Positions 3,191-20,892 of a DNA stretch of 64,000 bases are shown piece by piece. Below the pieces are notes generated by a model. The model saw only the letters and a list, made by a program, of their open reading frames with translations. It was not told where the DNA came from and made no database searches. How positions within the stretch are numbered: the first letter of the stretch is position 1; each line of letters begins with the position of its first letter. The translations under genes were made by a program, and so were the position numbers. The DNA is from Spirochaetales bacterium. GTDB taxonomy: Bacteria > Spirochaetota > GWE2-31-10. The stretch lies in contig JBNMHA010000001.1 in the NCBI GenBank assembly GCA_050872545.1, positions 4,047-68,046 on the forward strand, written 5' to 3'.

Positions 3191-3799
3191 CATAATCGGA
3201 AGAGTTGAAAACACACTTCCACTTCCCACGAATGTAAAAATATTACCTAAGATTCCGTAAGTCGGATTGCTCACTGAAGCAAATAAACTTACGCAAATTA
3301 ATCCTATTCCAGCCAATGCTATCCCTCCACTGCATGAACAAATAATTCCAGATACAATTGCTGATGTCTTTAGTTTCATCAATTTTTTTGTAATAAACGG
3401 CTGCAATTTTTCTAAATGCATATACGAATGCTTGTATTTTTTTATCCCAGAAGACAATAAAACACTGCCCGAGATTAATGTTCCTAATAACCCACCCACA
3501 GATAAACATGTTAATGTTGCACTTAAAACAATTGAACTTATTGAACGCAAATCTGTTAGTAAAAAAACATCAGTCACCGCACAAACATTGAATATTGTTG
3601 TTGCGCTACCTATTAGGATTGCTCCGGCATGAATTTTATTTATTTGGTTTACTAAAATTTTTTCATCCAAGCGAAATTCCGGATGAGTTTGTGTATCCTT
3701 TTCTATACAAAACGATGTTTTATCTTCTATTTCATTTGAATATATTTGAATAACCGAAAATATACTTATAAATATTGCTGCAACTAATAACTTGCTCAT
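3026..3799 (-). CDS. Polytopic membrane protein, paralog type B (copy 2)
   Basis: ORF of 257 aa, mosaic relative to 1330..2100. Confidence 0.6.
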   Translation of the reverse strand: MSKLLVAAIFISIFSVIQIYSNEIEDKTSFCIEKDTQTHPEFRLDEKILVNQINKIHAGAILIGSATTIFNVCAVTDVFLLTDLRSISSIVLSATLTCLSVGGLLGTLISGSVLLSSGIKKYKHSYMHLEKLQPFITKKLMKLKTSAIVSGIICSCSGGIALAGIGLICVSLFASVSNPTYGILGNIFTFVGSGSVFSTLPIMITSLAMSAWLKGEMNRFFVDIGLTSGNKGELSCDRSHRQQATPNGAAIALCVKF

Positions 3800-3811: not shown

Positions 3812-6800
3812 TTAATCAAAAAGATTAATTAATTTATCATTCATTAAATTAGAATCTATTTCATTCATAGCATCATTAAATACACAATAAATTCTAGTAG
3901 TTTGATGATCATAAAAACCATCCCATCCAAATGTAAAAGAATTTTCCAAAGGAATTGCTTTTTCGATTTGATACCAGTATTTCTCAATATTTTTGTCGTA
4001 ATAACTACGCCCTGCACCAGAAATAAATCCATCAATACTAATATTATTTGAGAAATCAACAAAGTGAGCTTCATCTCTGTAAAGAATATGGATTTCTTGA
4101 GAAATCTTACATGCTGCTAATCGAATTAACTGAACAGTTAAATATGTAAAATCTAAAAAAGTTACAGCTAGCGCAATCTGAAGTGCAATTTCCCAAGAAT
4201 AATTATAAGGCGGAATAATTCCATCATCAAAAGCCGGCGGAACAATTTCATCATCATTACTATAAAAATTGTACATTTTTACCTTTTTGTCGCCGCTGAG
4301 TGAATTAAATGTCTTATTCGGAAACTTAAAGCAATCTCTGTTAGATTTTTCGTTGTCTCCTATATCTGCTGTACTTGTTCCTACGCCGTTCAGTCCTACT
4401 ACAAATGGGATTTCACTCGCAAACTTTTCCATTTTGTCAGTTTGCAGATTGTGCATTGTGATGTTATTCACCGTTACACCGTGCGAATGCCCTATAAGTA
4501 TTATTTGAGACGCTCGGCAGTAAAAAAGGTTTGCCGCTACTCTGTCGTATATAAATTTTTCCAGTGCTTCGGCTGCCGCGTCACGGTATTCATAATTGTT
4601 TTCGCCCGACCAGTTGAAGTAATACGCTTTGTCATTTTGCGAATAATCCAAATTCAAAGCTTTTGCTACAGACGGCTGTTTAAAAAATTTTGCGGTATTT
4701 CCTTCACCGTTTTCGCAAAACATGTAATAGTTTCCATGCTGTTTAGCTTCAGTTACCCACTTATAAAAAAGCGTTCCATGTGTAAATATTACTATTCTGC
4801 TTGTAGGTACATCGTCAAGTTCCGATAAAAACTCCCGGCTGTCATCAGCTTCTTCCGTTACTTCAAACTTTACCACACTGTAATCTTTATACAATTTGTA
4901 CGTATAACTTGTAGTTACGCCTTGGCTGTCTTTTTGTGAACTGACATAAAGAGCCCAATATCCTTCGGTAGCTTTCCTTAAATCTTCCCTAAATGTGTCA
5001 TGCTCATAACCGCTTCCGTTGCTGGATGATGTATGTGATTTCATGTGAATGGAAACAGTTTTCACATATCTAAAATATGACGTACACAATTCATTGCCAT
5101 TTTTATCTAAAAGCGGAACACCTTTTACAAACTTTTTTGTAGGAATATACGGCTGTCCGTTTTTTTGCAGGTAGTATTCGGTATCGCCAATGCGAAAAAG
5201 ATTATTTGAATGAGGTTCACCGCTTTGGTAACAGGCATTCCGCACTGCATTTTCAGTCGCTGCAATTCTGAATTCGCCGACATTGTTTGAAAAAATTGCC
5301 GGAGTCTGCGGTACTTCTATTCTTACTTCCGGTTCATCCGCATCAATAAAATACATATCATTTTCAGGTTCTTTCTGTTCCACTCCGGCAAAGTCCGCCA
5401 GTTTCGCCACAATCTGCATTGCGGTTTCATTTGCCTTTATGTAATCATTATCCCGAAATGTTTTTTGCAGTTTTTTTGTGTCATCAAGCAAATCAATTTG
5501 TTTCCTTGTATCTTCATCCGCCGCCAAACTGACAAGGCGCGAAGTCAATTCCCACAACGTTATGCCCTCTGCACGCCGTACACTGCTTACGTTAGTTGAA
5601 ACTCCTATTAAATCAAAAGTTACTTCCTCATCACGGTCTGCATTTACAAGATACGGAAAACTCAATGTCATATTCGCACCGGCAGCCAATTCTACAGATG
5701 TAGATTTTAAATCCATTTGGACAAACGACGGAATATTTTCAAAACGCAGACATATCACATCAGTTTGCTTTGCATTATTTGTAACTGTTACTTTTATCTG
5801 GCTTTTTACACCTTTAGTGTAATAACCGACATTTGATTGAATCGAAAAATCGGCATCTACAACATTCAGTTTAATGACATGTTCACGTTTTACTTTAGGA
5901 TTGTTTGCCGAACTGCAAATTATCTTTACTTCAGTACTTTTCTTTTCAGTAAGCTTCACTGCAACTTCTATTGTTTCATGAGATTTTCCGTTTAATGCAG
6001 CTGTATTTTTAGATAACTTAACTTGGGCAAAATCAGAATCCGCACTGATAAAATATGAATCCTTAATATCCGTATTATTATGAATTACGATCGATGTTAA
6101 AATTTCTGCATTCAACGGCAATGACAATGAAGAATTTCCAGATATTGTGAAATCCGCATTGCTTGGATTAAACGTAATAGTAAAACTCTGCTTTTGCGCT
6201 GGATTGTTCACTGATGTCAAAGTAATTACTGCTTCTTTTGATGACGTTTCGTTTAGTTTCGCTTCCAATACAAGACTTTTGCTTTCACCGGATTTCACAG
6301 CAAATAAATTTGTCTCGGCTGATATTTCAAGACCAACGGATGGTTCTGTTTCTACTTTGTACGTATCATCAACATCACCATTATTTGTTATATTCAGTGT
6401 CTGCCGAGTACTTTCATTCACTGCTACAAACAACGCATTATTTCCAGATATTGTGAAATCCACGTTACTTGGATTAAACGTAATAATGAAACTTTGTTTC
6501 TGTGCCGGATTGTTCACTGATGTCAAAGTAATTACTGCTTCTTTTGATGATGTTTCGTTTAGTTTCGCTTCCAGCGCAAGACTTTTGCTTTCACCGGATT
6601 TCACGGCAAATAAATTTGTCTCGGCTAATATTTCAAGACCAGCGGATGATTCTGTTTCTACTTTGTACGTATCATCAACATCGCCGTTATTTGTTATGTT
6701 CAGTGTCTGCCGAGTACTTTCGTTCACCGCAACAAACAGCGCATTATTTCCAGATATTGTGAAATCCGCATTGCTCGGGTTAAACGTAATGGTAAAACTC

Positions 6801-8392
6801 TGCTTTTGCGCTGGATTGTTTACTGATGTCAAAGTAATTACTGCTTCTTTTGATGATGTTTCGTTTAGTTTCGCTTCCAGTGCAAGGCTTTTGCTTTCAC
6901 CGGATTTCACTGCAAATAAATTTGTCTCGGCTGATATTTCAAGACCGGCGGATGATTCTGTTTCTACTTTGTACGTATCATCAACATCGCCGTTATTTGT
7001 TATATTTAGCGTCTGCCGAGTACTTTCATTCACCGCAACAAACAACGCATTATTTCCAGATATTGAAAAATCCGCATTGCTTGGGTTAAACGTAATAATG
7101 AAACTCTGCTTTTGTGCCGGATTGTTTACAGATGTCAAAGTAATTACTGCTTCTTTTGATGATGTTTCGTTTAGTTTCGCTTCCAGTGCAAGACTTTTGC
7201 TTTCACCGGATTTCACTGCAAATAAATTTGTCTCGGCTAATATTTCAAGACCAACGGATGGTTCTGTTTCTACTTTGTACGTATCATCAACATCGCCGTT
7301 ATTTGTTATATTTAGCGTCTGCCGAGTGCTTTCATTCACCGCAACAAACAGCACATTATTTCCAGATATTGTGAAATCCACGTTACTTGGATTAAACGTA
7401 ATGGTAAAACTCTGCTTTTGCGCCGGATTGTTCACTGATGTCAAAGTAATTACTGCTTCTTTTGATGACGTTTCGTTTAGTTTCGCTTCCAGTGCAAGGC
7501 TTTTGCTTTCACCGGATTTCACGGCAAATAAATTTGTCTCGGCTGATATTTCAAGACCGACGGATGATTCTGTTTCAACTTTGTATGTATCATCAACATC
7601 GCCATTATTTGTTATGTTCAGTGTCTGCTGAGTACTTTCATTCACTGCTACAAACAGCGCATTATTTCCAGATATTGTGAAATCCGCGTTACTTGGATTA
7701 AACGTAATGGTAAAACTACAGTTTTCATTTGAATCATTTTCCGAAACTGCGGTAATATCGACTTTGCCGATTCTTGATTCCGGCAGCATAACGCTGTAAT
7801 CTACAGTTTCATACTCTCCGGAAGAGATTTTAACTTCAGTTTTTGTCAACGTTAAGCTAACATTTTCACATACCGCCGACAGCGCATATTTATCCGAAAA
7901 TTTTCCGGTATTTCTTACAATGAAATTTCCGGTCAATTGTTTATTCACCGGCAAATACAAAGATGAATCTCCGATTATCTCAACTTTTGCCGGAGTAGAA
8001 ATATCTACAGTCAACAAAATTTCTTTTTTATTCGGACGAAAAGATTCCCCGCCTACGACAAATATAGCTGCCTTGTAACTTCCTTTTTTCAAAGCTTTTA
8101 CGCAAAATATCGCTTCTTTCTTTTCACGTGCATTTACAGAAATTTTTTCTGCAAACTCCAAGTTGAAGCCTTCAGATTTTTCTGCTGACAAATAAAAATC
8201 CTGCGAATAATCCTCTTGATTTTCTATAAATACAGAAAGCAATTGCTCTGTTTCCAACGGCATTTTTTTAAGCAGCTGATTTTCCGACAGTGCAAATTTG
8301 TACTCTCTGTGAGTTTTCACTTCGTTCCATTGTTCCTGCGTACAGCTGAAAATAAACAGCAGCATTATCGACAACAAACTATAGTATTTCAT
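3812..8392 (-). CDS. Giant surface lipoprotein (1526 aa): lipobox, Ig/CARDB-like region, 5.3 near-identical 102-aa tandem repeats, C-terminal alpha/beta-hydrolase (lipase/esterase-like) domain
   Basis: Signal peptide with lipobox IFSC. The unit FTITFNPSN...AQKQS is repeated. The C-terminal region carries HG (FTHGT) and the nucleophile-elbow GHSHG motif typical of lipase/esterase folds. The gene overlaps its neighbours in the operon. Confidence 0.6.
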   Translation of the reverse strand: MKYYSLLSIMLLFIFSCTQEQWNEVKTHREYKFALSENQLLKKMPLETEQLLSVFIENQEDYSQDFYLSAEKSEGFNLEFAEKISVNAREKKEAIFCVKALKKGSYKAAIFVVGGESFRPNKKEILLTVDISTPAKVEIIGDSSLYLPVNKQLTGNFIVRNTGKFSDKYALSAVCENVSLTLTKTEVKISSGEYETVDYSVMLPESRIGKVDITAVSENDSNENCSFTITFNPSNADFTISGNNALFVAVNESTQQTLNITNNGDVDDTYKVETESSVGLEISAETNLFAVKSGESKSLALEAKLNETSSKEAVITLTSVNNPAQKQSFTITFNPSNVDFTISGNNVLFVAVNESTRQTLNITNNGDVDDTYKVETEPSVGLEILAETNLFAVKSGESKSLALEAKLNETSSKEAVITLTSVNNPAQKQSFIITFNPSNADFSISGNNALFVAVNESTRQTLNITNNGDVDDTYKVETESSAGLEISAETNLFAVKSGESKSLALEAKLNETSSKEAVITLTSVNNPAQKQSFTITFNPSNADFTISGNNALFVAVNESTRQTLNITNNGDVDDTYKVETESSAGLEILAETNLFAVKSGESKSLALEAKLNETSSKEAVITLTSVNNPAQKQSFIITFNPSNVDFTISGNNALFVAVNESTRQTLNITNNGDVDDTYKVETEPSVGLEISAETNLFAVKSGESKSLVLEAKLNETSSKEAVITLTSVNNPAQKQSFTITFNPSNADFTISGNSSLSLPLNAEILTSIVIHNNTDIKDSYFISADSDFAQVKLSKNTAALNGKSHETIEVAVKLTEKKSTEVKIICSSANNPKVKREHVIKLNVVDADFSIQSNVGYYTKGVKSQIKVTVTNNAKQTDVICLRFENIPSFVQMDLKSTSVELAAGANMTLSFPYLVNADRDEEVTFDLIGVSTNVSSVRRAEGITLWELTSRLVSLAADEDTRKQIDLLDDTKKLQKTFRDNDYIKANETAMQIVAKLADFAGVEQKEPENDMYFIDADEPEVRIEVPQTPAIFSNNVGEFRIAATENAVRNACYQSGEPHSNNLFRIGDTEYYLQKNGQPYIPTKKFVKGVPLLDKNGNELCTSYFRYVKTVSIHMKSHTSSSNGSGYEHDTFREDLRKATEGYWALYVSSQKDSQGVTTSYTYKLYKDYSVVKFEVTEEADDSREFLSELDDVPTSRIVIFTHGTLFYKWVTEAKQHGNYYMFCENGEGNTAKFFKQPSVAKALNLDYSQNDKAYYFNWSGENNYEYRDAAAEALEKFIYDRVAANLFYCRASQIILIGHSHGVTVNNITMHNLQTDKMEKFASEIPFVVGLNGVGTSTADIGDNEKSNRDCFKFPNKTFNSLSGDKKVKMYNFYSNDDEIVPPAFDDGIIPPYNYSWEIALQIALAVTFLDFTYLTVQLIRLAACKISQEIHILYRDEAHFVDFSNNISIDGFISGAGRSYYDKNIEKYWYQIEKAIPLENSFTFGWDGFYDHQTTRIYCVFNDAMNEIDSNLMNDKLINLFD
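6100..7717 (-). repeat. In-frame tandem repeat array inside the giant lipoprotein gene: 306-bp unit, about 5.3 copies, more than 95% identical
   Basis: Plus-strand shadow ORFs in 6147..7680 recur with a 306-nt period. The protein repeat 'ITFNPSN(A/V)DF(T/S)ISGNN' occurs six times. Confidence 0.9.
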
Positions 8393-10315: not shown

Positions 10316-10669
10316 TTAGTCGGCACGAACAAAAGTGCCCCAACTCCAAAGTGTCAACTTTCCGCCTGACAATGTGTAAGCGTAAGTTTCATCTTTGTCT
10401 TTAAAGTTGATTATACCGCTTTCGGATTTATCAATTTCCCACTCAAAGCTATTTGAAACCGAACCATTTTTGTAAACATAGTCCACTTTCATTTTGTCAT
10501 TAGATGTGAATTCCAGATTATATTTCTCATACACAGAAAATTCTTTGCTATCAAAATCTTCCGGAACCCATTTCCCAATAAGTCCGCATTCCACTCCAGC
10601 AGGAGTACAGCTCGCCAATGCAAAAATAAATGCAACAGTAATAAAACAAATTTCTAATCCTCTTTTCAT
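10316..10669 (-). CDS. Small 'GKW-motif' lipoprotein (117 aa), first gene of operon 1
   Basis: Lipobox LASC followed by the motif TPAGVECGLIGKW. It is paralogous to 11321..11701 and 63449..63814. Confidence 0.6.
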   Translation of the reverse strand: MKRGLEICFITVAFIFALASCTPAGVECGLIGKWVPEDFDSKEFSVYEKYNLEFTSNDKMKVDYVYKNGSVSNSFEWEIDKSESGIINFKDKDETYAYTLSGGKLTLWSWGTFVRAD

Positions 10670-10706
10670 AGTTAATATCCTTGTAATAAAATTTCACGAA
10701 ACTGTA

Positions 10707-10738
10707 AGATTAGCCGGCTATTGCAATCTCGCTGTCAA
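10707..10738 (-). promoter_or_regulatory. Candidate sigma70-like promoter for operon 1
   Basis: On the minus strand: TTGACA (10738-10733), a 20-nt spacer, then TAATCT (10712-10707), about 40 nt upstream of the RBS AAGGAT and the ATG at 10669. The spacer is longer than optimal. Confidence 0.25.
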
Positions 10739-10770
10739 GTTTTATCGTTCATGAAAAGCGATTTTGCAAG

Positions 10771-10815
10771 AAAAAAAACTTCCCGGAGGTCAAGAAAATT
10801 CTCCGGGAAGTTTTT
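10771..10815. terminator. Bidirectional intrinsic terminator (A8, CTTCCCGGAG, 12-nt loop, CTCCGGGAAG, T5)
   Basis: Perfect 10-bp GC-rich inverted repeat flanked by an A-run and a T-run. It separates operon 2 and the repeat element from the operon-1 promoter. Confidence 0.65.
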
Positions 10816-11027
10816 CTTGGTAAATTTTTTGTTAGTTATATTGATTTTGAAATTAATACAAGTATAATTAAAATTTTTTGTTATAAACAAATCAAGACTT
10901 TATACCAATTTAGTATTATTTACAAAATGTGTGGCAATTTTCTTTGCAGGGGACAGACCTCAATTCTAACTTGGGATACAAGTAAATTCGGGTGGATATG
11001 AAAGTAAACTAAGGGACCGACCTATAT

Positions 11028-11205
11028 GCTATTTTAGAATTAAAGTCTGTCCCTTGTGTTAATGAGATCTCCGGGTCAAGCCCGAAGATGACATAAAATT
11101 TCACAAATTACTTTGTTATTCCCTAACTTGCGTCCTATTGTCATTGCCCGGTGCGACCGGATAATGACATTAGGCTTGTATGGTGTCAGACCTATATGCT
11201 ATTTC
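11028..11205. repeat. 187-bp structured repeat unit (1.1 copies) with internal inverted repeats
   Basis: Contains GGTCTGTCCC pairing with GGGACAGACC upstream, the hairpin ATCTCCGGG-tcaag-CCCGAAGAT, and CCTATTGTCATT-19nt-AATGACATTAGG. Confidence 0.7.
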
Positions 11206-11320
11206 CACATATAAATACAGCGCAAAAAGCATAAAAAAAGCGGCAAGAAATTTTTGTTTCTTACCGCTTATTTCAAAAAGGATTATGTTTATTATTTGCC
11301 GACAAAACAATTTTCCAAAA

Positions 11321-11701
11321 TTAACATGTTCGTTCTAAAACTAAAGATCTGGAGAAAATTAAGTATCCGCCGCTTAAAATACATGAAATTTCTCCGTCCG
11401 GAAGTCCTTTGCCCTCACCGTCAATACACTCAATTTCCAAAATTGTTCCATTAAAAATGCAGCCATCGCCTTCTTTACTTGTACCTGTTATTTTATATAC
11501 CTCAGAAAGTTTTTCACTTCCGTTATCCCAAGAATAAACGAAAGTATCATCTGCATAAAATTCTATAATATACGTAACTCCGCCGGATTCGCCGCTCCAT
11601 TTTCCCAATAAATCGCAACTAACGCCAGCACAAGTACACGATATTATCAAAAAAAACAAAGCAACCGGCAGCAATGCAAAAAATCCAATTTTACTTTTCA
11701 T
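11321..11701 (-). CDS. Small 'GKW-motif' lipoprotein (126 aa), last gene of operon 2
   Basis: Lipobox IISC followed by TCAGVSCDLLGKW. Its signal-peptide coding sequence and RBS are identical to those of 11711..12712. Confidence 0.6.
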   Translation of the reverse strand: MKSKIGFFALLPVALFFLIISCTCAGVSCDLLGKWSGESGGVTYIIEFYADDTFVYSWDNGSEKLSEVYKITGTSKEGDGCIFNGTILEIECIDGEGKGLPDGEISCILSGGYLIFSRSLVLERTC

Positions 11702-11710
11702 TGTCGTCTC

Positions 11711-12712
11711 CTAAATCAAAGAACATGTCAAATTTATCATGTTATATTTGTATACTTTATCTGTCCAAGCTTGAATTATGTAGATATTATCCCCATGCCG
11801 TGCGCTATCCGTATCTTTCGTTTTTATTGAAACTCTATCTTTTTCAACACCGCTTCTATCGAATGTTACAATCGATTTATTTGTTAAAAGAGTAATGAAA
11901 TCATCATTTTGATAGAGTGAATTCACACTAAAAAAGCCTCCTGTAGAAAAAACTTTTTCTACATTTAAAACATTATCAATTACCGAATAACGAAACAGAT
12001 CAACATCACGCCTTTCTCTTTCCCCATTATTTTCAGATACAACAAAAGTTCCGAGCAAATAAGGATCATAAAAATCTAAATACAAATAATCTTTATCAAA
12101 GCACGATAAATCAACAAATTTCTTTTGTGTAAGGTTATAAATATCGCTATACCCTAAACTATAAAGCAGAGAAACATAAACATTATTACCATTATGACCG
12201 GCAAATTTAGTCAAATACATTTCGCCTCCCGGCAGTGTCTCGTAGCGTATCTTTCTTGTTTGTGCATTATACACCGCATAAGTCACTGGAACATCTTTGA
12301 ATCCGGGAACACATGGTGCAATCCAAAGTTCATTATTTACATACGTAAAACATTCTGCAACTCTGGAAAGTTCAAAATGGAGTTCCTGTACTTTCCCGGT
12401 CAACGGATTCAAGCGGGCTATACGACCGTTTACAGTTAAAAAATACACGCTTTCATCAAAACTTTTATCATAAAAGAAATCACAAATTATACTTTCCGGG
12501 AATTTATACGTATATATCGCAGTTTCGGTTTTGGTATCGAAAGCAATTATTTTATGGCAATTGTCATCCCATCGGGATGTTAAGAAAATTGTATTTTCAT
12601 CAACATTTATTGGTTTGAAAGACGGAAACGGTGACAACGGTGCTTCACAAGACGTTATCAAAGAAAACAAAGCAAGCAGCAGCAATGCAAAAAATCCAAT
12701 TTTACTTTTCAT
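11711..12712 (-). CDS. Paralogous lipoprotein family member 1 (333 aa)
   Basis: Lipobox ITSC. The N-terminal ~180 aa and the C-terminal RHGDNIYIIQAWTDKVYKY.MINLTCSLI are shared with 12722..13735. A 9-nt intergenic gap precedes it. Confidence 0.6.
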   Translation of the reverse strand: MKSKIGFFALLLLALFSLITSCEAPLSPFPSFKPINVDENTIFLTSRWDDNCHKIIAFDTKTETAIYTYKFPESIICDFFYDKSFDESVYFLTVNGRIARLNPLTGKVQELHFELSRVAECFTYVNNELWIAPCVPGFKDVPVTYAVYNAQTRKIRYETLPGGEMYLTKFAGHNGNNVYVSLLYSLGYSDIYNLTQKKFVDLSCFDKDYLYLDFYDPYLLGTFVVSENNGERERRDVDLFRYSVIDNVLNVEKVFSTGGFFSVNSLYQNDDFITLLTNKSIVTFDRSGVEKDRVSIKTKDTDSARHGDNIYIIQAWTDKVYKYNMINLTCSLI

Positions 12713-12721
12713 TGTCGTCTC

Positions 12722-13735
12722 CTAAATCAAGGAACATGTCAAATTTATCATGTCATATTTGTATACTTTATCTGTCCAAGCTTGAATTATGTAGATATTA
12801 TCCCCATGCCGTGCGCTATACTCACCTTTTATGTCTATTGGAACTCTAGCTTTCTCTCTATAATTATTTTTTTTATCAAAAGCAATGAATGAATCTGTAG
12901 TCACATAAACTATAACATCATCATTTTGATAAAGTGAATTCATATTATAGAAACCATCAGCAAAAAAAAGTTTTTCTACACTCAACACATTATCAGTTAT
13001 CGAATAATGAAATACATCTGTATTACGCTGATTTTGCTGTTCATTCCAATGTACACAAACCATATAAGGGTCATAAAATTCTATACAAAAATAGCATTTA
13101 TTTTCCTTATCCAAACAGGATATATCCACACCTTTTTTCTGTGTAATATTGTAAATCTCTGCCGGCTGCTGTGAAATATAAAATGAAATATATGTATTTC
13201 CATTTTCATATCCGGCATATTCTTCACAAAAGATTACCCCACTCGGCAACGTTTCGTAGCGTACCTTTCCTGTTTGGGCATTATACACCGCATAAGTTAC
13301 CGGAACATCTTTGAATCCGGGAACACACGGTGCAATCCAAAGTTCATTATTTATATACGTAAAACGTTCTGCAACTCTGGAAAGTTCAAAATGAAGCTCT
13401 TGTACTTTCCCGGTTAACGGATTCAATCGGGCTATACGACCATTGAGAGTCAGAAAATACATGCTTTCATCAAAACTTTTGTCATAAAAGAAATCATAAA
13501 TTATACTTTCCGGGAATTTATACGTATATATCGCAGTTTCGGTTTTGGTATCAAAAGCAATTATTTTATGGCAATTGTCATCCCATCGGGATGTTAAGAA
13601 AATTGTATTTTCATCAACATTTATTGGTTTGAAAGACGGAAACGGTGACAACGGTGCTTCACAAGACGTTATCAAAGAAAATAAAACTAACATCGGCAAT
13701 AACAACAACACAAGAAAATTTATTCCGCTTTTCAT
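12722..13735 (-). CDS. Paralogous lipoprotein family member 2 (337 aa)
   Basis: Mosaic relative to 11711..12712. The RBS AAGGAG lies upstream. Confidence 0.6.
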   Translation of the reverse strand: MKSGINFLVLLLLPMLVLFSLITSCEAPLSPFPSFKPINVDENTIFLTSRWDDNCHKIIAFDTKTETAIYTYKFPESIIYDFFYDKSFDESMYFLTLNGRIARLNPLTGKVQELHFELSRVAERFTYINNELWIAPCVPGFKDVPVTYAVYNAQTGKVRYETLPSGVIFCEEYAGYENGNTYISFYISQQPAEIYNITQKKGVDISCLDKENKCYFCIEFYDPYMVCVHWNEQQNQRNTDVFHYSITDNVLSVEKLFFADGFYNMNSLYQNDDVIVYVTTDSFIAFDKKNNYREKARVPIDIKGEYSARHGDNIYIIQAWTDKVYKYDMINLTCSLI

Positions 13736-13926
13736 CGATTCTCCTTAGTGATAGGGGATGTCTAATAAGTTTAAGTCCTAGAGGTCATTGAGCCCGTCGA
13801 AATGACCAAATGTGGTTTCGATATAACCAAAAACTAAAGTTTTTGGCTTGCTCAAACATCGCATTTTCAACTTTTAGGACATTCCCTTTATTTAGTAACT
13901 GTTTGATACACAATTTGAAAATTACG

Positions 13927-14949
13927 CTATTCAATAACTTTCATTGAAAAATCTTCCAAATTGATTTTATAAATACTGTGAGTATCACCTTTTACGCAGT
14001 AAAAGAATCCGTCACGAACATAATTGGAAAAAGAAGATTGCATATTTAAAGAATTTGATTTTTTAAGTCTATAATTATCTTTAGCATAAACCAGAAAACT
14101 TCTTTTTTCAGGATCTATACCATAAACAAATAGATATTTTTCTGTTTCATATACTCCCTGAACTCTAATTTTTTTAATATTAAGAAGTTTATTTACTTCT
14201 AATTTTGGCACTATTGATTTTATTTTATATATAAATACTTCATCTATACTGTCTGCTACTAAAAACCCATTGTAATAATCGTACCAAGAACATTTAACAG
14301 AATTATCCAATGACGATATGTCAAGTTTTTTCTTATCTGTATAATTATATATTTCAGCTTCATCCATATATAATGGCAAGAAAACTTTATCATCCATTTT
14401 AAAAGGTGTTGCATTTAACAAAATTCCTTCCGGCAATTCTTCATAACGATACGAATCGGTAGCCGGTGTATATACAAAATATTTTACAGGGGTATTTTTA
14501 AAACCCGGATAATTCGGACTTACCCACACTTCGTTATTGAAAATTACCAAATCTTCCGGTTCTCTGATTAATTCTATATTTTTAATTTCACTCATTTTCC
14601 CGGAAGTTACATCCAGTTTTGCTGTTCGCCCATCCCCAAATATTACATATATATTGTTTTTATCTGTTTCATAATCATAGGCTACTTCATAAAGACTTAA
14701 ATTTTTATCGAATACATATCTGTAAAGAAGCTTTTGTTTATCTGAATCAAATACAATTATTTCATTTAATTCACTGCCATCTTTTGCGGTAGAGCCATCA
14801 CAATTATCAAAAACAAAAATATTTTCATGCATTTCTATAGATACATCAAACGTCGGCAAAGGAACATCTTTTTGGTTTTCCTCCATATTGCAGCCTACAC
14901 AACTTGTAAATAGACAGAATAAAGCTATGATTTTATATATAAATTTCAC
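13927..14949 (-). CDS. Paralogous lipoprotein family member 3 (about 341 aa from a GTG start)
   Basis: The ORF track starts at 14979, but AAGGAG followed by 6 nt and GTG at 14949 gives the typical signal peptide MKFIYKIIALFCLFTSC. The C-terminus ...KINLEDFSMKVIE is shared with the two upstream paralogs. Confidence 0.5.
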   Translation of the reverse strand: MKFIYKIIALFCLFTSCVGCNMEENQKDVPLPTFDVSIEMHENIFVFDNCDGSTAKDGSELNEIIVFDSDKQKLLYRYVFDKNLSLYEVAYDYETDKNNIYVIFGDGRTAKLDVTSGKMSEIKNIELIREPEDLVIFNNEVWVSPNYPGFKNTPVKYFVYTPATDSYRYEELPEGILLNATPFKMDDKVFLPLYMDEAEIYNYTDKKKLDISSLDNSVKCSWYDYYNGFLVADSIDEVFIYKIKSIVPKLEVNKLLNIKKIRVQGVYETEKYLFVYGIDPEKRSFLVYAKDNYRLKKSNSLNMQSSFSNYVRDGFFYCVKGDTHSIYKINLEDFSMKVIE

Positions 14950-14970
14950 TGTTTGTCTCCTTAGTGATAA

Positions 14971-14995
14971 CTCCCCCATAAAACAAGGGGGGGAG
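14971..14995. other. Intergenic GC hairpin with a homopolymer (C5, 9-nt loop, G7) immediately upstream of the RBS of the 13927 gene
   Basis: CTCCCCC-ATAAAACAA-GGGGGGGAG followed by TTTTATTT. A paralogous copy at 16148-16170 has G6. Confidence 0.7.
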
Positions 14996-15036
14996 TTTTA
15001 TTTAATGACTGCTTGATACACAATTTGAAAATTACA

Positions 15037-16128
15037 CTATTCAATAACTTTCATTGAAAAATCTTCCAAATTGATTTTTAAAACTGCCGGATTTTCTTCA
15101 CCTACAGAGTTTATTGTATAAACATATTTTCCAACTTGGTAAAATTGCTCCAAACTTATAGTCGGATTATATTTTTTCACATCTGGATAATGCTCCCTAA
15201 AAGAATCCAATATTTCGTTTGTTTCAGGATCATACTTTAGAATATCTTTATAAGCTTCGCCTGTATCTAAATACAAATAATCACCATACTCAAGATCTGC
15301 ATAACATACGACATCGAGTGTTTGCAGCGGCTTAGAAACTTTAAACTTTGATTCTCCAAATTCTTCAAGTTTGTACAACGTAGTTTTTGTTTCGTACATC
15401 ATTTTCTCTTCATTTCTTATTTTTTTTCTTTTTCCTACAATGCCTTTTTTGAAAAAAGAAACAAAATGAAAAGCCGTAACTGAATCATCGATTAAATCAG
15501 GAAAATAATCATTCAAATCGATATTCATATCTTTTTGCTTTGTCCAGTTATAAATATCTCTTTGTGTATATGCATTATAAACTGAATCCGCAGCTACAAC
15601 ATATATATCACCGTCATACTTAAAGGGAGAACCTAGAAATTTATACGGTTCTGAAGTAAGCTCTTCGGTTTGGTAATAATAACGATATATTTTATCATTA
15701 TGATTATCCATAAAAAGCAAGTTGTCACTTTCGAATTCAAACATAGAAACCGTTCCGCCCAATGTTGGTTCTCCAAAATATTTTATTTTAGCAGTAGCCG
15801 GATCAAACTCAGACAAACGTGCTAATTTTCTTGAATCCCTATGTCCATGATATACAAAATAGCATTTCTTCTGCTCCTTCACGTATTTAAAATCATGGGT
15901 AATGTTTTTATCTGGATCTAAATGATACCGCTTTACGATTCTATCTGTAGATAAATCAACTGCTAAAAATTGTCTGTTTTTTCCGCAATCAAAAAAGAAA
16001 TATATTGAATCAGTAACTTCTATAGGCTTAAATTCAGGAAATGAACCATCTATTTCTTCTGTACAGCAAGAAAATAAAACTAACATCGGCAATAGCAGCA
16101 ACACAGGAAATTTTATTCCGCCTTTCAT
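15037..16128 (-). CDS. Paralogous lipoprotein family member 4 (363 aa)
   Basis: Signal peptide ending LFSCC. It is about 75% identical to 16212..17309 and shares the C-terminus NPAVLKINLEDFSMKVIE. Confidence 0.6.
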   Translation of the reverse strand: MKGGIKFPVLLLLPMLVLFSCCTEEIDGSFPEFKPIEVTDSIYFFFDCGKNRQFLAVDLSTDRIVKRYHLDPDKNITHDFKYVKEQKKCYFVYHGHRDSRKLARLSEFDPATAKIKYFGEPTLGGTVSMFEFESDNLLFMDNHNDKIYRYYYQTEELTSEPYKFLGSPFKYDGDIYVVAADSVYNAYTQRDIYNWTKQKDMNIDLNDYFPDLIDDSVTAFHFVSFFKKGIVGKRKKIRNEEKMMYETKTTLYKLEEFGESKFKVSKPLQTLDVVCYADLEYGDYLYLDTGEAYKDILKYDPETNEILDSFREHYPDVKKYNPTISLEQFYQVGKYVYTINSVGEENPAVLKINLEDFSMKVIE

Positions 16129-16147
16129 CGATTCTCCTTAGTAATAA

Positions 16148-16170
16148 CTCCCCCATAAAACAGGGGGGAG
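16148..16170. other. Intergenic GC hairpin with a homopolymer (C5, 8-nt loop, G6) upstream of the RBS of the 15037 gene
   Basis: CTCCCCC-ATAAAACA-GGGGGGAG followed by TTTTATTT. Confidence 0.7.
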
Positions 16171-16211
16171 TTTTATTTAATGACTGTTTGATACACAATT
16201 TGAAAATTACG

Positions 16212-17309
16212 CTATTCAATAACTTTCATTGAAAAATCTTCCAAATTGATTTTTAAAACTGCCGGATTTTCTTCACCTACAGAGTTTATTGTATAAACAT
16301 ATTTTCCAACTTGGTGAAATTGCTCCCAACTTATAGGAGGGTTATATTTTTTCACATCTGGATAATGCTCCCTAAAAGAATCCAATATTTCGTTTGTTTC
16401 AGGATCATACTTTAGAATATCTTCATAAGCTTCACCGGTATTTAAATACAAGTAATTCCCATATTCAAAATTTTTATAACATCCTACATCAAGCACCTTC
16501 AACGGCTCGGAAACTTTAAACTTTGATTCTCCAAATTCTTCAAGTCTGTATAACGTAGTTTCAACGTCATAACGCATACTCTCATTATTTCTTGTTTTTT
16601 TCCTTTTCCCAACAATGCCTTTTTTGAAAAAAGAAATAAAATGAAAAGTTTCATTTGGAATATAATCATCAAGTAAATCAGGAAAATAATCATTTAAATC
16701 GATATTCATATCTTTTTGCTTTGTCCAGTTATAAATATCTCTTTGTGTATCTGAATCATAAACTGAATCTGCACCAACAACATATATATCACCGTCATAC
16801 TTGAAAGGAGACCCTAAATATTTATATGTTTCTGTAGTAAATTCACCTGTTTCATAATAATAACGATATATTTTATTCATATAATTATCCATAAAAAGCA
16901 AATAATCATCTTCAAGATTTAATGGAAAAACAAAACCTCCTAAAATCGGAACTTCAAAATATTTTATCTTTGCTGTAATTGGATCAAACTCTGCCAGCTT
17001 ATTCTTCCCCATTGCATCTCTATGTCCTAAATATGTGAAATAACATTTCTTTTGCTCCTTTATATAAATGAAATTATCAACAAGATTTTTATCCGGACTC
17101 AACTTGTATCTTTTAACAACTTTATCTGTAGATAAATCAACTGCTAAGAACTGTTTGTTTTTTTCACAATCAAAAAAGAAATACATTGAATCAGTAACTT
17201 CTATAGGCTTAAATTCAGGAAATGAGCCATCTATTTCTTCTGTACAGCAAGAAAATAAAACTAACATCGGCAATAGCAGCAACACATGAAAATTTATTCC
17301 GCTTTTCAT
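16212..17309 (-). CDS. Paralogous lipoprotein family member 5 (365 aa from the second ATG)
   Basis: The RBS GGAGAC lies inside the first ATG codons, which favours the start MKSGINFHVLLLL at 17309. It overlaps the upstream gene's stop. Confidence 0.55.
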   Translation of the reverse strand: MKSGINFHVLLLLPMLVLFSCCTEEIDGSFPEFKPIEVTDSMYFFFDCEKNKQFLAVDLSTDKVVKRYKLSPDKNLVDNFIYIKEQKKCYFTYLGHRDAMGKNKLAEFDPITAKIKYFEVPILGGFVFPLNLEDDYLLFMDNYMNKIYRYYYETGEFTTETYKYLGSPFKYDGDIYVVGADSVYDSDTQRDIYNWTKQKDMNIDLNDYFPDLLDDYIPNETFHFISFFKKGIVGKRKKTRNNESMRYDVETTLYRLEEFGESKFKVSEPLKVLDVGCYKNFEYGNYLYLNTGEAYEDILKYDPETNEILDSFREHYPDVKKYNPPISWEQFHQVGKYVYTINSVGEENPAVLKINLEDFSMKVIE

Positions 17310-18940
17310 TGTCGTCTCCATATCACAACATTAGTTTTTTTATTGTATATTTTTGTTCGACCATAATTCCACATGTAAAATCCTCCGGTAGATGTCCATT
17401 CCCATTTTCCTTTCCACCATTCCCACCATTTACCAGTCTTTTCCCATCTCCAATACCCAGTCGGAACCCATACACGGAACCAAGCATAACCATACTGGTC
17501 TGATGAAGAATCATAAATATCATCAGGAGTAATAATCCTTCCCACACAACCTCGAATAATTGCATGAGCAGGAAACAAAAGTAGAGCATCTAACCATACA
17601 AAAGATTGAAGAGCCGGATATTGATTTTTTACATCGGAATTCAAATCTATTCCTATACTTTTATATCCTGCATAAGGCATATAACTACAGTAAATATTTT
17701 TGGTTAAATCATATTTAAAATTATCATCATCTTCTTTGTCATTATATTTATTTACTGTATATGCTACAGCCCTTTCCATTTCTGTTTCAGAAGTACGTAT
17801 AGGTTCCAAAATTGCAATTCTTTCTCCATTAGTAAAATTTTTCAACGGTTCAAATGACGGATACCCTAAATGTTCAGGCATTCTGTCTCCCTGCAAATCA
17901 CCTTTTGATGTTTTAGGATACGCCGAGAAAACAAAACTTGTAGAATTCGTGGCATTTATCTTACCGTCTGCCATTTTCTTACCTCTTAAATCAATCAATC
18001 CAGCATGGTCGTATGTTCCATATATGCAGCCTTTACTTTTTAGTTTAGAAACCCTGCAAATAATTTGCCCTGTTTTCAATTTACCGTCTTTTATTTCTTC
18101 ATCCGTTATCAAGTTATTGCTATAATAACTGCCGCTGGAGCTGCTGCTTCGAGTTGCCATTGAATTTAGTTTTTTGTGATAGTTTTGAATCTTTTTAATG
18201 TCTATATTTTTATCCAATAAATCAGAGATTTCCATAACTTCATCTTGGTAATTCAAAAGTGCTAAAAAATGAACAAATGACGCTGCATTAACTTTCACTT
18301 CATTGTTTGCCAAAGTTGCTCTACTGTTTCTCGATTTTCTGTATGATAAATATTTTTTTATATTTAATTTTGTACTTCTGGAATTTGAATCATTATATAA
18401 TTCCATCATTGATAAATCTGCTTTAGCATCAACACTCTCATTAGCTGTTAAAATCAACTCTTCTTCAAAGAATTTTTTTTCAATCTCTTTCAACATCTCA
18501 CCTTCGGCAATTTTTGCCTGAATATAATCAGATGTTAAATCATCCTGATTTTTCAATTCCAGTGTTGTTAAATAGTGATATTCCACTTTTACATCATCAT
18601 TTGCACACGCTTCCTCAAACCCTATTTTTAATTCATCAGGCATACTCATATAGAAATCCAATAACTCTTCTTCTGCCTGAACTGTAACAAAATCTGAAGT
18701 TTCGTCTTCTTGTATTCCCCTACTTCTCCTACTTTGCGCAGACTTTATTTTTGTTAATAAATCATTTTCTAAAACTCGTTTATAATCTCTAGTTACGACT
18801 TCATTTTCTGAAATAATTTCTCTAACATCATTTTTTTCCGACACATTTTCTTTCTTCTCCGTGTTTGCCGCATCACAACCTGCGAATAATACAACTGCCG
18901 CCGATAAAACAGACAGACATAAAGCTTTACATCTTTTCAT
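17306..18940 (-). CDS. Lipoprotein (544 aa) with a possible papain-fold (NlpC/P60-like) region and a tryptophan-rich C-terminal tail, first gene of operon 2
   Basis: Lipobox FAGC. Candidate catalytic residues lie in the order Cys (YCSYM) then His (FPAHAI). The last ~45 aa contain 12 Trp (WFRVWVPTGYWRWEKTGKWWEWWKGKWEW...). The enzymatic assignment is speculative. Confidence 0.4.
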   Translation of the reverse strand: MKRCKALCLSVLSAAVVLFAGCDAANTEKKENVSEKNDVREIISENEVVTRDYKRVLENDLLTKIKSAQSRRSRGIQEDETSDFVTVQAEEELLDFYMSMPDELKIGFEEACANDDVKVEYHYLTTLELKNQDDLTSDYIQAKIAEGEMLKEIEKKFFEEELILTANESVDAKADLSMMELYNDSNSRSTKLNIKKYLSYRKSRNSRATLANNEVKVNAASFVHFLALLNYQDEVMEISDLLDKNIDIKKIQNYHKKLNSMATRSSSSSGSYYSNNLITDEEIKDGKLKTGQIICRVSKLKSKGCIYGTYDHAGLIDLRGKKMADGKINATNSTSFVFSAYPKTSKGDLQGDRMPEHLGYPSFEPLKNFTNGERIAILEPIRTSETEMERAVAYTVNKYNDKEDDDNFKYDLTKNIYCSYMPYAGYKSIGIDLNSDVKNQYPALQSFVWLDALLLFPAHAIIRGCVGRIITPDDIYDSSSDQYGYAWFRVWVPTGYWRWEKTGKWWEWWKGKWEWTSTGGFYMWNYGRTKIYNKKTNVVIWRRQ

Positions 18941-18977
18941 AATTAATATCCTTGTAATAAGATTTCACGAAATTGTA

Positions 18978-19009
18978 AGATTAGCCAGCTATTGCAATCT
19001 TATTGTCAA
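18978..19009 (-). promoter_or_regulatory. Candidate sigma70-like promoter for operon 2 (copy of the 10707-10738 element)
   Basis: TTGACA (19009-19004), 20-nt spacer, TAATCT (18983-18978), inside the duplicated module. Confidence 0.25.
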
Positions 19010-19041
19010 GTTTTATCGTTCATGAAAAGCGATTTTGCAAG

Positions 19042-19086
19042 AAAAAAAACTTCCCGGAGGTCAAGAAAATTCTCCGGGAAGTTTTT
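19042..19086. terminator. Bidirectional intrinsic terminator (copy of 10771-10815)
   Basis: A8, CTTCCCGGAG, loop, CTCCGGGAAG, T5. It would terminate the mrp-plus-repeat transcript. Confidence 0.65.
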
Positions 19087-19288
19087 CTTGGTAAATTTTT
19101 TGTTAGTTCTATTGATTTTGAAATTAGTATAATTATAATAAAAAGTTTTTAATTATCAAATAATTAAGATTTTATGCCTATTTAGTATTATTTACAAAAT
19201 GTGTAACAATTTTTTTGCAGGGGACAGACCTCAATTCTATTTTAAGATACAAGCAAATTCGGGTGAATATAAAATATACTAAGGGACA

Positions 19289-19671
19289 GATTAGTATCCC
19301 ATCTTGGGATTAAGGTCTGTCCCTTGTGTTAATGAGATCTCCGGGGCAAGCCCGAAGATGACACGGATTTTCACAAATCACTTTGTTATTCCCGAACTTG
19401 CTTCCTATTGTCATTGCCCGGCGTGATCAGATAATGACAATAGACTTGTATGGTGTCAGACCTATATGCTATTTCGGAATTAAGGTCTACCCCCTTGTGC
19501 TAATGAGATCTCCGGGTCTAGCACGAAGATGACGCGAAATTTCACAAATCATCTTGTTATTCCCGAACTTGCTTCCTATTGTCATTACCCGACGTAACCG
19601 GACAATGACAATAGACTTGCATAGTGTCAGATCTATATTCTATTCCGGAATCATGGTCTGTCCCTTATAAT
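19289..19671. repeat. Tandem array of the 187-bp structured repeat (units 19289-19475 and 19476-19660, plus a partial unit)
   Basis: Units are about 88% identical. Each carries the hairpin ATCT(C/T)CGGG-5nt-CCCGAAGAT and CTATTGTCATT-19nt-AATGACAATAG. Confidence 0.85.
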
Positions 19672-20892
19672 TTAATGACAACAGCCACCACTGCAACTGC
19701 CACCTTCATGACCGGAGCAAGTTCCTTCTCGGTCTGTCAATTTATTTTCTATATAAAGTTGAATAATCGACGAACATTTCCCGACACCTACGCCGCGAAA
19801 AAGTTTTATTCCGAAAGAACGGCAAATATTTGCAGCTTCATCACCCATTCCGCCTGCAATTATCACTTCTACTTTCTTTTCATTTTTCAGCCAAGCAATT
19901 ACATCAGCATGACTTCCTTTGATTACCGAAATCTCTTCTTCTGCCGCTACTGATTTTTGTTTTGTCGTATACAAAGTAAAATATTTTGTATGACCAAAAT
20001 GCGGATTCAGCAGACCATCTTCCGACGGAATTGCCACAACAATTTCTCTATTTGCAATTTCTTCAACTTTAGTCATAACATTCTTGCCAATTTGTGCCAT
20101 AGCTTTTCCTGCAGCGGTTTCTGCATAAAGCGTAACATAAGGTTTGCCTGCGTCCGTTGCATTTACAACCTGCGGTTCCAATGGAATTTTTCCCAATACT
20201 TCGGTACCAAAATCCTCTGCTGTTTGCAAAGTTCCATCAGTTTTAAAAATATCAACAGTTTCACCACAATGCGGACAAACAAAACCGGACATATTTTCAA
20301 CAATTCCTATTACAGGAAGATTCAGCATTCCGGCAAATTTCAATGACTTGCGAACATCCAGCAACGCAACCTGCTGCGGAGTAGAAACAATAACTGTTCC
20401 GGATACATCACCGATTGTCTGAATTACGGACAACGGCTCATCACCTGTTCCCGGCGGGCAATCTACAATTAAGAAATCAAGCTCCGGCCAAAAAATTTCA
20501 TCCAAAAACTGACGTATCACGCCATTTTTTGCCGGTCCGCGCCAAATAATCGGGTCATCGGGTGATTCTAAAATCGATGCAACTGTTACAACATACAAAT
20601 TTTCCTGAGTCGGAACTTGTATCGGAACAGGCAGCCCCTGTTCATTAGTTTTCAAGCGCATTCCCTCGATTCCTGTCATCTTAGCTACTGACGGTCCATG
20701 TACATCTACATCCAGTAATCCAACTTTTTTTCCCTGTGACGCAAGATAATACGCAAGATTTACACTAACCGTACTCTTGCCTACACCACCTTTTCCACTC
20801 ATTACTACAATTTTATGCTTCATCTTATTAAGATTTTCCTGCAAAAAAGACTGCTGCATATCTCCCATTTTTATCTCCTTCTTTAATATCAA
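19672..20892 (-). CDS. mrp: Mrp/NBP35-family Fe-S cluster carrier ATPase fused to a NifB/NifX-like (dinitrogenase FeMo-cofactor-binding) domain with a Cys/His-rich tail
   Basis: Walker A GKGGVGKST, the ParA/Mrp fold, a C-terminal DUF with AGGMGDEAANICRSFGIKL, and the terminal CSGHEGGSCSGGCCH. Confidence 0.7.
   Translation of the reverse strand: MILKKEIKMGDMQQSFLQENLNKMKHKIVVMSGKGGVGKSTVSVNLAYYLASQGKKVGLLDVDVHGPSVAKMTGIEGMRLKTNEQGLPVPIQVPTQENLYVVTVASILESPDDPIIWRGPAKNGVIRQFLDEIFWPELDFLIVDCPPGTGDEPLSVIQTIGDVSGTVIVSTPQQVALLDVRKSLKFAGMLNLPVIGIVENMSGFVCPHCGETVDIFKTDGTLQTAEDFGTEVLGKIPLEPQVVNATDAGKPYVTLYAETAAGKAMAQIGKNVMTKVEEIANREIVVAIPSEDGLLNPHFGHTKYFTLYTTKQKSVAAEEEISVIKGSHADVIAWLKNEKKVEVIIAGGMGDEAANICRSFGIKLFRGVGVGKCSSIIQLYIENKLTDREGTCSGHEGGSCSGGCCH

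Follow-up and report, generated by a model that had tools for sequence, protein, structure and literature searches.

Introduction

In Escherichia coli, REPs (repetitive extragenic palindromes) are organised in clusters known as bacterial interspersed mosaic elements (BIMEs). REPs of types Y and Z alternate in orientation, are joined by fixed linkers and are tandemly repeated. They carry a GTAG tag, have a REP-associated tyrosine transposase (RAYT) as partner and are connected by linkers of 10-30 bp which bind IHF or gyrase. RAYT genes flanked by inverted REPs are likewise a known geometry. We analysed a structured tandem repeat next to the mrp gene in a stretch of 64,000 nt from Spirochaetales bacterium (Spirochaetota, GWE2-31-10; assembly GCA_050872545.1, contig JBNMHA010000001.1, positions 4,047 to 68,046 of the forward strand), hereafter referred to as the window. 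Its 171-bp unit is probably a non-coding, partly decayed and locally amplified cluster of REPs with a CGTC-type tag, the architecture of which resembles that of BIMEs and of NIMEs, the intergenic mosaic elements of Neisseria.

CGTC-tagged REPs are defined by a CGTC or TGTC tag (a CCTC variant is allowed) which is unpaired and not part of the stem, a stem of 8-9 bp opening with AT, a loop of 4-5 nt belonging to a few major types and an unpaired CCA tail (Di Nocera et al. 2013, BMC Genomics 14:522, PMC3733652). They mostly occur as inverted dimers with the tags outside (HH) and spacers of 20-100 bp, which may contain small stem-loops. They are recorded in Proteobacteria, Chlorobi, Bacteroidetes, Spirochaetes and Thermotogae, the dRS3 repeat of Neisseria being the CGTC-1 family. 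Clusters are described as rare outside Neisseria and Wolbachia. As of 2013 they were said to 'lack a dedicated transposase', and many REPs are regarded as transcribed RNA elements (PMC3733652). In NIMEs, dRS3 hairpins flank RS elements of 50-150 bp. NIME arrays adjoin variable surface-protein genes, vary in repeat number among strains and gather opportunistic insertion sequence (IS) insertions (PMC1797815).

The repeat unit contains two hairpins in opposite orientation

A summary of all features is given in Table 1. Tandem Repeats Finder detects the array at 19309-19666 with a period of 171 bp, 2.1 copies and 85% matches (locus B). A preliminary description, made from the sequence alone, had given the period as 187 bp, because one 171-bp unit together with 16 nt of the next was counted; the array itself, its 2.1 copies and the existence of a second locus are real. 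This second locus (locus A, 11019-11205) holds the third copy of the unit, which shares 89% identity with the first copy of locus B (blastn, E = 3e-65) and 84-85% with the second (E ~1e-53). No further copies were found by blastn in the window. Copy number thus differs between the loci, with 2.1 copies at 19309-19666 versus a single unit at 11019-11205, just as described. The array also abuts mrp as described: with its final partial unit ending at ~19666-19671, it runs right up to the stop codon (19672-19674) of this minus-strand gene.

In each unit, hairpin P1 (minus strand) is followed by a linker of 47 bp, hairpin P2 (plus strand) and a second linker, of 70 bp, which holds a stem-loop. The hairpins of locus B start at 19336, 19410, 19507 and 19581, leaving spacers of 47 and 70 bp. 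P2(+) at 19410-19436 and P1(-) at 19507-19533 form a pair with the tags outside and the 70-bp spacer between them. One linker carries the remnant of a putative third REP, the other the extra stem-loop (GGGACAGACC-type core pairing with GGTCTGTCCC). A 10-nt core, G[GT]G[AT]CAGA[CT]C, recurs as the junction at which the modules join in different orders; module X comprises 53 nt. The unit is non-coding, with stop codons in all six frames although 171 = 3 x 57.

The P1 stem ATCTTCGGG/CCCGGAGAT is paired at 9/9 positions on the minus strand, including one G.T. The tags of its copies read tGTC, tGTC and cGTC, and the loops CTTGA, CTTGC or CTAGA. P2, with the sequence GTCATTGCCCGGCGTGATCAGATAATG and tGTC tags, is a degenerate member of the same family in the orientation opposite to P1. 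Its stem ATTGCCCGG/CCGGATAAT is paired at 8/9 positions at locus A and is more decayed in the first copy of locus B. P2 is extended by an outer palindrome CTATTGTCATT/AATGACAATAG, an 11-bp stem pairing 19405-19415 with 19433-19443.

The inverted repeats within the unit had all been described as exact. This holds for GGGACAGACC (19221-19230) with GGTCTGTCCC (19314-19323, 19655-19664) and for the 11-bp stem, the loop of which measures 17 nt instead of the 19 nt stated and pairs further. The 9-bp stem ATCTCCGGG/CCCGAAGAT, in contrast, contains one C.A mismatch on the plus strand, equivalent to a G.U pair on the minus strand.

The hairpins resemble CGTC-tagged REPs shared across phyla

Genomes of the GTDB collection were scanned with the 9-bp hairpin pattern, which gave many chance matches in GC-rich genes and, in addition, ~39 loci in which P1 plus flanks is 100% identical over 27-34 nt, ...GG ATCTCCGGGTCAAGCCCGAAGAT GAC.... 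These derive from Chlorobium, Patescibacteria, Saccharibacteria, Elusimicrobia, Muiribacteriota, Campylobacterales, Alpha- and Gammaproteobacteria, Clostridia, Desulfovibrionaceae and four gut/rumen Treponema metagenome-assembled genomes (MAGs), and several copies per genome are common. Read on the opposite strand P1 is GTC-ATCTTCGGG-CTTGA-CCCGGAGAT-C, one member of a family GTC-AT(N7)-CTTGA-(N7')AT-C, which is defined by the hairpins neighbouring P1 in those loci.

When 26 members are aligned, the tag and the loop prove to be conserved, and covariation is seen in the 9-bp stem. Here 93% of the cells are paired versus 26-47% with slid partners, and the 49 double-change cells are reached by none of 500 shuffles. 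Of 61 family hairpins, 45 lie outside any open frame of 120 codons. Members elsewhere have the loop CTTGA and end with CC.

The window hairpins are extragenic and share with CGTC REPs the tag, an AT-opening stem of 8-9 bp, a loop of 4-5 nt and inverted partners with spacers of 20-100 bp; the CCA tail is the sole defining feature that they lack. Literature searches by hairpin sequence returned only the Neisseria REP. The REP/MITE-like mobile repeat (MITE, miniature inverted-repeat transposable element) that the preliminary description had named among its candidates agrees well with these data: tag, stem, loop and inverted dimers fit REPs, the modules vary between strains, and two stretches of a sister species are free of the unit. 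As for MITEs in particular, the inverted repeat GGGACAGACC.../...GGTCTGTCCC is present, but the target-site duplications that had been proposed as a check are not found at the array edges. The flanks of locus B (tttgcag / ttataat) show no duplication and locus A ends within a unit.

Side observations concern the same hairpins elsewhere. In four fetched loci (L037 at ~540-600, L056, L058 and L072 at ~3610-3680) P1 precedes a series of short tandem copies of its own 3' half (CCCGAAGATGACA and a spacer of 7-12 nt). A Campylobacterales MAG (L046, 5639-5839) contains an 88-bp tandem array, every unit of which has a single GTCATTCCCGACTTGATCGGGAATC hairpin, joined by one of P1 type wherever the sequence was read. 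The window is therefore not alone in having tandem arrays of CGTC-type doublets.

The array varies between strains and is absent from two stretches of a sister species

Close strains (mrp 97-98% identical) were found only in Logan and ENA assemblies, where nearly every contig ends within the repeats. The array starts 7 nt past the mrp stop codon in all strains. In one of them (L002) mrp is followed by three or more Y units. Two others (L017 and L018) show the order core-X-core-Y-core-X-core-Y at locus A, versus core-X-core-Y-core in the window. Module orientation is identical in every assembly reaching the region (window, L002, L004, L005, L017, L018). The gene content beyond the lipocalin/OEP operon at locus A differs between L017 and L018 on the one side and the window on the other.

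A 766-bp IS200/IS605 element is inserted at the same unit position, directly after TGTGTTAA(T), at locus B in L002 (11539-12304, tnpA 11703-12164) and at locus A in L017 (1-57). It has its own end hairpins CCACCCG...CGGGTGG. As the same site was hit at two loci in two strains, the unit is a preferred target of this IS. An association with a RAYT was considered and rejected, since the only Y1 protein near the units is this element's ordinary TnpA. The TnpA of L002 reaches 159 bits on the IS200/IS605 model NF033573 (cut-off 55), while the model for REP-associated tyrosine transposases (cut-off 80) yields just 35 bits.

In the sister species (mrp 88% identical) mrp is followed after ~60 nt by an ordinary terminator and by different downstream genes. 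The two stretches compared, one downstream of mrp and the other upstream of the gene orthologous (81% identity) to the 544-aa lipoprotein gene which opens the operon at locus B, contain no unit; this orthologue keeps ~190 nt of the leader. Judged by the strain variation, the IS insertions and the absence from the sister-species stretches, the units are young, dispensable at the loci that were comparable, structurally unstable and tolerant of disruption.

Comparison with described systems

The window array agrees with CGTC REPs in the tag outside the stem, the 9-bp AT-stem, the 5-nt loop, the inverted partners 20-100 bp apart and the stem-loops in the spacer. CGTC REPs are moreover mostly extragenic and located downstream of genes, and Spirochaetes are already on record (PMC3733652). 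It differs from them in that the window REPs are known only inside the 171-bp unit at two loci, P2 is decayed and the tails are not CCA.

Like NIMEs, the array alternates REP-type hairpins with AT-richer spacers (47/70 bp here, 50-150 bp in NIMEs), varies between strains at syntenic positions, carries an IS in two strains and adjoins lipoprotein genes. Unlike NIMEs, its hairpins have a 9-bp stem and a 5-nt loop versus ATTCCC-N8-GGGAAT in Neisseria, and it is a regular tandem of 1-3 units whereas NIMEs are mosaics of >100 RS families. With BIMEs it shares two REPs alternating in orientation, two alternating linkers, head-to-tail repeats, the intergenic position and probable read-through from the upstream gene, but the tag is CGTC/TGTC, the linkers are 47 and 70 bp long and no RAYT is present. 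The non-autonomous inverted REP doublet also recalls REPIN-RAYT systems, in which GTAG-tagged REPs flank a RAYT gene; elsewhere the family hairpins flank a small nuclease gene as REPs flank RAYT genes. In this case, however, the flanked gene encodes a GIY-YIG nuclease and not a Y1/HUH transposase, and the window with its CGTC/TGTC tags contains no Y1 gene.

Several points weigh against the assignment to CGTC REPs. P2 is degenerate: its loops are CGTGA, TGCGA and CGTAA, not CTTGA, and its stems contain 1-2 plus-strand mismatches. As 3' tails, P1 has CTC and P2 has G/GAC versus the published CCA, such that only the first C of P1 agrees. No isolated CGTC-type hairpin was found outside the units in ~100 kb (the 64-kb window plus ~40 kb of strain contigs). 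Only these two loci could be examined, and a high genome-wide copy number is a hallmark of REPs. The whole 171-nt unit was detected in no other genome of GTDB and in no JGI metagenome, collections from which the species is apparently missing. Finally, it is the minus strand that folds better in each of the six unit variants, with G.U in place of the plus-strand A.C.

The underlying searches were as follows. The exact-pattern scan of the GTDB genomes with TTGTGNTAATGAGATCTCCGGG gave 0 matches; the species is judged missing from this collection because close mrp homologues occur only in Logan and ENA assemblies. The JGI metagenome scan with TTTCACAAATNANNTTGTTATT gave 34 matches, none of them homologous outside the pattern itself, and the lineage is apparently missing there. 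A search of a protein collection with the 56-aa stop-free frame of the unit, seeking open reading frames (ORFs) that mark extra copies, yielded no candidates. Integron attC sites, a CRISPR-like array, a self-cleaving ribozyme, a retron or omega-RNA and the template or variable repeat of a diversity-generating retroelement were also considered and dropped, as defining partners, motifs or Rfam matches are missing.

Folding, transcription and a possible RNA function

Compared with shuffled sequences, locus B folds with z = -10.5 on the minus and -7.5 on the plus strand, and locus A with z = -8.4 and -5.7, respectively. The preliminary description placed the element between the mrp stop codon and an intrinsic terminator. 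Indeed no terminator is found from the stop codon down to 19089. Since none separates the array from mrp, read-through on the minus strand as part of the mrp 3' untranslated region (3'UTR) is plausible. The terminator at 19045-19089, though, is assigned to the conserved leader of the downstream operon because it is part of a duplicated ~545-bp region (see below); ~130 nt of promoter-like sequence lie between it and the repeats.

Hence the units might be a selected minus-strand RNA element, either a stability or processing element of the mrp 3'UTR or a 3'UTR-derived small RNA (sRNA). We consider this unlikely. In its favour, in addition to the open path from the stop codon to 19089, the array begins 7 nt past the stop in all strains, the minus strand is the better folding one in 6/6 variants with the z-scores of -10.5 and -8.4, and P2 of the second copy of locus B forms 14 Watson-Crick and 4 G.U pairs with no mismatch on the minus strand while four mismatches occur on the plus strand. 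Moreover, the REP literature itself treats many REPs as transcribed RNA elements (PMC3733652).

However, no known Rfam family is present, as the preliminary description had noted by eye: the whole window gave no match at gathering thresholds, and at E <= 10 both loci gave only chance matches, none on the hairpins. The covariation proposed there as a check is found for the family stem across genomes; within the units themselves, 1 of 57 predicted pairs is compensatory among the six close variants, whichever strand is taken, a comparison that is underpowered. At locus A a separate terminator (11238-11269) precedes the unit, which is therefore not in a 3'UTR. The sister species does without the units, and natural strains carry the 766-bp IS within them. 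P1 and P2 are one hairpin family in opposite orientations, which fits a DNA element and not a single transcript.

The excess of G.U pairs on the minus strand is explicable by strand-biased C-to-T mutation; it fits either weak selection on RNA hairpins or a transcription-coupled C-to-T bias. The dedicated sRNA or protein-binding array suggested in the preliminary description is not positively supported, given the missing Rfam family, the single compensatory pair and the tolerated IS insertions. By analogy to E. coli REPs, the hairpins may protect 3' ends or interfere with translation termination, the latter being considered because the first hairpin begins 7 nt past the stop.

The units are embedded in a duplicated operon upstream region

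The units are part of a ~545-bp duplication (10661-11205 and 18932-19475) with ~90% identity, the non-repeat part being 90% identical as well (blastn, E = 1e-138). It represents the upstream region of two minus-strand lipoprotein operons, including their first nine coding bases. The operon at locus B opens with the gene for a 544-aa lipoprotein (start 18940). At locus A a 117-aa lipocalin-like lipoprotein (start 10669) is followed by an outer-membrane protein of the OEP family and a 1526-aa repeat protein.

The copies are separated by an 8.3-kb block of paralogous lipoprotein genes in tandem duplication. NIME-type arrays promote recombination or exchange of the surface-protein genes at their flanks; in the window, the ~545-bp direct repeats bracket the lipoprotein block and gene content downstream varies among strains, but no recombination endpoint could be mapped to the units.

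An arrangement like this may suggest a cis-regulatory device for the lipoprotein operons, such as an array of regulator sites or an invertible segment bounded by the inverted repeat IR-L and the GGTCTGTCCC repeats. It is consistent with the same ~545 bp preceding two operons, with an inverted repeat of 10-20 bp bracketing 66-430 bp and with neighbours that encode lipoproteins in paralogous, strain-variable clusters. We nevertheless regard it as improbable. No recombinase, transposase or regulator gene is found among the annotated neighbours, and the promoter-like hexamers are outside the bracketed segment. All six assemblies reaching the region show the same module orientation. The sister-species orthologue keeps the leader but has no units, and in the close strains unit number varies and an IS interrupts the units.

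It is highly improbable that the duplication merely copied arbitrary intergenic DNA, by a recent local segmental or tandem event, with palindromes that are REP-like by chance: even though only three copies exist, all within 8.6 kb and inside a region rich in tandem gene duplications, and no unit was found elsewhere in the genome, metagenome and protein-frame scans, P1 is identical over 27 nt, including tag and tail base, to a hairpin in dozens of unrelated genomes, P2 and the linker remnant fit the same pattern of tag, AT-stem and loop, and such GC-rich hairpins occur nowhere else in the window, which has a G+C content of 36%.

Further observations were made in the surroundings. Both leaders (18941-19130 and 10670-10860, minus strand) contain, ~100 nt upstream of the start codon, a strong terminator-type hairpin with T8 behind it; in the sister species the corresponding leader position is taken by a weak, AT-rich hairpin (L006, 18600-18790). 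The leader hairpin could act as an attenuator or be no more than the upstream gene's terminator. Within the lipoprotein block (11321-18940) segments of 78-94% identity are spaced 1.0-1.2 kb apart. An intergenic hairpin, CCCCC-ATAAAACA(A/G)-GGGGG, is conserved between paralogous lipoprotein genes (14956-14991 and 16133-16168) and probably represents their terminator, duplicated along with the genes. A 306-bp tandem repeat at 6134-7717 (5.2 copies, 92% matches) lies within the 1526-aa ORF (3812-8392, minus). Matches of this ORF to Ig-like and fibronectin-III-like domains make it probable that the repeat codes for reiterated domains of a surface protein.

Table 1. Coordinates of the repeat units, their hairpins and the adjoining features in the window
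Feature	Position	Strand	Description	Basis
Locus B array	19309..19666		Plus-strand module order core-X-core-Y-core-Y-core-truncated Y, then mrp stop codon	TRF (Tandem Repeats Finder), blastn, core positions
Locus A single unit	11019..11205		core-X-core-Y-core; breaks off after CTATTTC at 11205	
P1 copy 1	19336..19362	minus	CGTC-type REP: tGTC ATCTTCGGG CTTGC CCCGGAGAT C	Hairpin scans, family match
P1 copy 2	19507..19533	minus	cGTC ATCTTCGTG CTAGA CCCGGAGAT C; one stem mismatch	
P1 locus A	11066..11092	minus	Sequence GTCATCTTCGGGCTTGACCCGGAGATC, identical to copies in many phyla	
P2 copy 1	19405..19443	plus	Core 19410-19436: tGTC ATTGCCCGG CGTGA TCAGATAAT G; partly decayed CGTC-type REP, extended to 11-bp outer palindrome	
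P2 copy 2	19576..19614	plus	Core 19581-19607; 18 pairs on minus strand, 4 of them G.U	
P2 locus A	11135..11174	plus	Core 11140-11166	
Putative third-hairpin remnant in linker, GTTATTCCCGAACTTGC	19385..19401	plus	3' arm apparently lost	Comparison with family members such as GTCATTCCCGACTTGATCGGGAATC
IR-L, GGGGACAGACCTCAATTCTA	19219..19238	plus	20 nt; inverted partner of the ...TAGAATTAAGGTCTGTCCC segment opening each unit; locus A copy 10948-10967	
mrp gene	19672..20868	minus	MrpORP-type Fe-S cluster carrier; ParA/NUBPL and NifX-like domains; array begins 7 nt past stop	
Duplication copy B	18932..19475		First 9 nt of the 544-aa lipoprotein gene, leader, terminator hairpin, AT-rich promoter-like stretch, IR-L, module X, first unit	
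Duplication copy A	10661..11205		Precedes the 117-aa lipocalin-like lipoprotein gene	
Bidirectional terminator-like hairpin, CTTCCCGGAG...CTCCGGGAAG	19045..19089		A-run and T-run flanks; shared leader, ~100 nt upstream of lipoprotein start; locus A copy 10774-10818	
Divergent sigma-70-like promoter matches	19112..19159		Plus TTGATT-16-TATAAT 19112-19139, also 10841-10868; minus TTGATA-16-TATAAT 19159-19132	Consensus scans only

Family hairpins flank small GIY-YIG nuclease genes

Small GIY-YIG nuclease genes (~95 aa, Pfam PF01541) directly adjoin family hairpins in those fetched loci which contain them. In a Patescibacteria MAG (L042, 4640-4967) the GIY-YIG gene ends within the P1 hairpin, which supplies its last codons and its stop. 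In a Desulfovibrionaceae locus (L139, 326-750) a hairpin abuts the start of the gene and the next hairpin of the strict pattern follows ~65 bp past its stop. A tblastn search with the latter nuclease against a plasmid/chromid collection gave 33 records, of which 12 diverse ones and pSymB of Sinorhizobium meliloti were inspected.

In Rhizobium, Shinella, Sphingobium, Azospirillum and Aeromonas a hairpin(+) lies ~25-110 bp upstream and a hairpin(-) within ~80 bp downstream of the GIY-YIG gene (loci with hairpins: L175, L178, L182, L183, L186 and L188). The Azospirillum unit sits in the intergenic space between sufB and sufC. S. meliloti has hairpins upstream of the gene, the fetched stretch ending before the downstream side. 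In N. gonorrhoeae a GIY-YIG gene is located within a dRS3 array. Five inspected loci lack family hairpins; in Photobacterium the nearest lies ~200 bp downstream.

In 40-kb contexts (L189-L192), Aeromonas and Azospirillum contain no family hairpins besides those flanking the GIY-YIG gene. Sphingobium adds one gene-less doublet and Rhizobium a ~271-bp tandem array of doublets just downstream. Ten of the 18 family hairpins in these contexts fall within 120 bp of a GIY-YIG gene, a zone that makes up 1.3% of the sequence. The nominal P is 7e-15 if the hairpins are taken as independent and 1e-5 if clusters are counted.

A GIY-YIG gene between inverted hairpins corresponds to the geometry of RAYT genes and REPs. 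This suggests hairpin-GIY-YIG-hairpin as the autonomous form and the gene-less doublets as its derivatives. We tentatively propose that CGTC REPs could be the terminal hairpins and gene-less derivatives of a hairpin(+)-GIY-YIG-hairpin(-) mobile unit with a nuclease of ~95 aa, and that the window array could be a decayed and amplified remnant thereof, which is possible though not the likelier outcome. Alternatively, the GIY-YIG gene could preferentially land inside hairpin doublets. No GIY-YIG coding remnants were seen in the P2-P1 spacer of the window when read by eye. No publication linking GIY-YIG nucleases with REPs was found; as literature coverage is incomplete, novelty is not established by this.

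In an alphaproteobacterial MAG (L113, 4599-5907) two inverted P1 hairpins bracket a 1.25-kb segment encoding a 182-aa HNH endonuclease (PF01844). It is a second type of nuclease found between such hairpins.

Discussion

Taken together, we regard the element as an ordinary selfish or structural repeat of an already catalogued type and not as a new RNA gene. The REPs would have arrived or spread as selfish DNA in need of an enzyme acting in trans, and the array would expand and contract as its repeated cores slip or recombine unequally. Together with the promoter and leader cassette, one copy of the unit was carried to the second lipoprotein operon. Hairpins that are read through would act only incidentally as a barrier to 3'-exonucleases or as a stop-proximal structure, and no dedicated cellular function seems to be needed to explain the array. 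Because no isolated hairpins occur in the ~100 kb and no whole unit was found in GTDB or JGI, the cluster may, instead of belonging to an active REP population, be fossil or have been acquired horizontally as a fragment.

The association of family hairpins with GIY-YIG genes is apparently unreported. Since CGTC REPs were reported without a dedicated enzyme, yet the hairpins flank GIY-YIG genes in several phyla, this nuclease is a candidate for the enzyme. It is a lead that may matter more than the array itself. If true, it would provide a testable candidate enzyme for a superfamily including the dRS3/NIME repeats of Neisseria and the rickettsial RPEs (rickettsial palindromic elements).

For the spirochaete, a conspicuous structured repeat is probably explained as DNA of a REP cluster, which warns against its annotation as an sRNA or riboswitch. 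At the array the conserved mrp side gives way to a lipoprotein island that varies among strains; at this border assemblies break and an IS lands repeatedly. CGTC-type REP clusters with a NIME/BIME-like architecture seemingly exist in an uncultured gut-type spirochaete as well.

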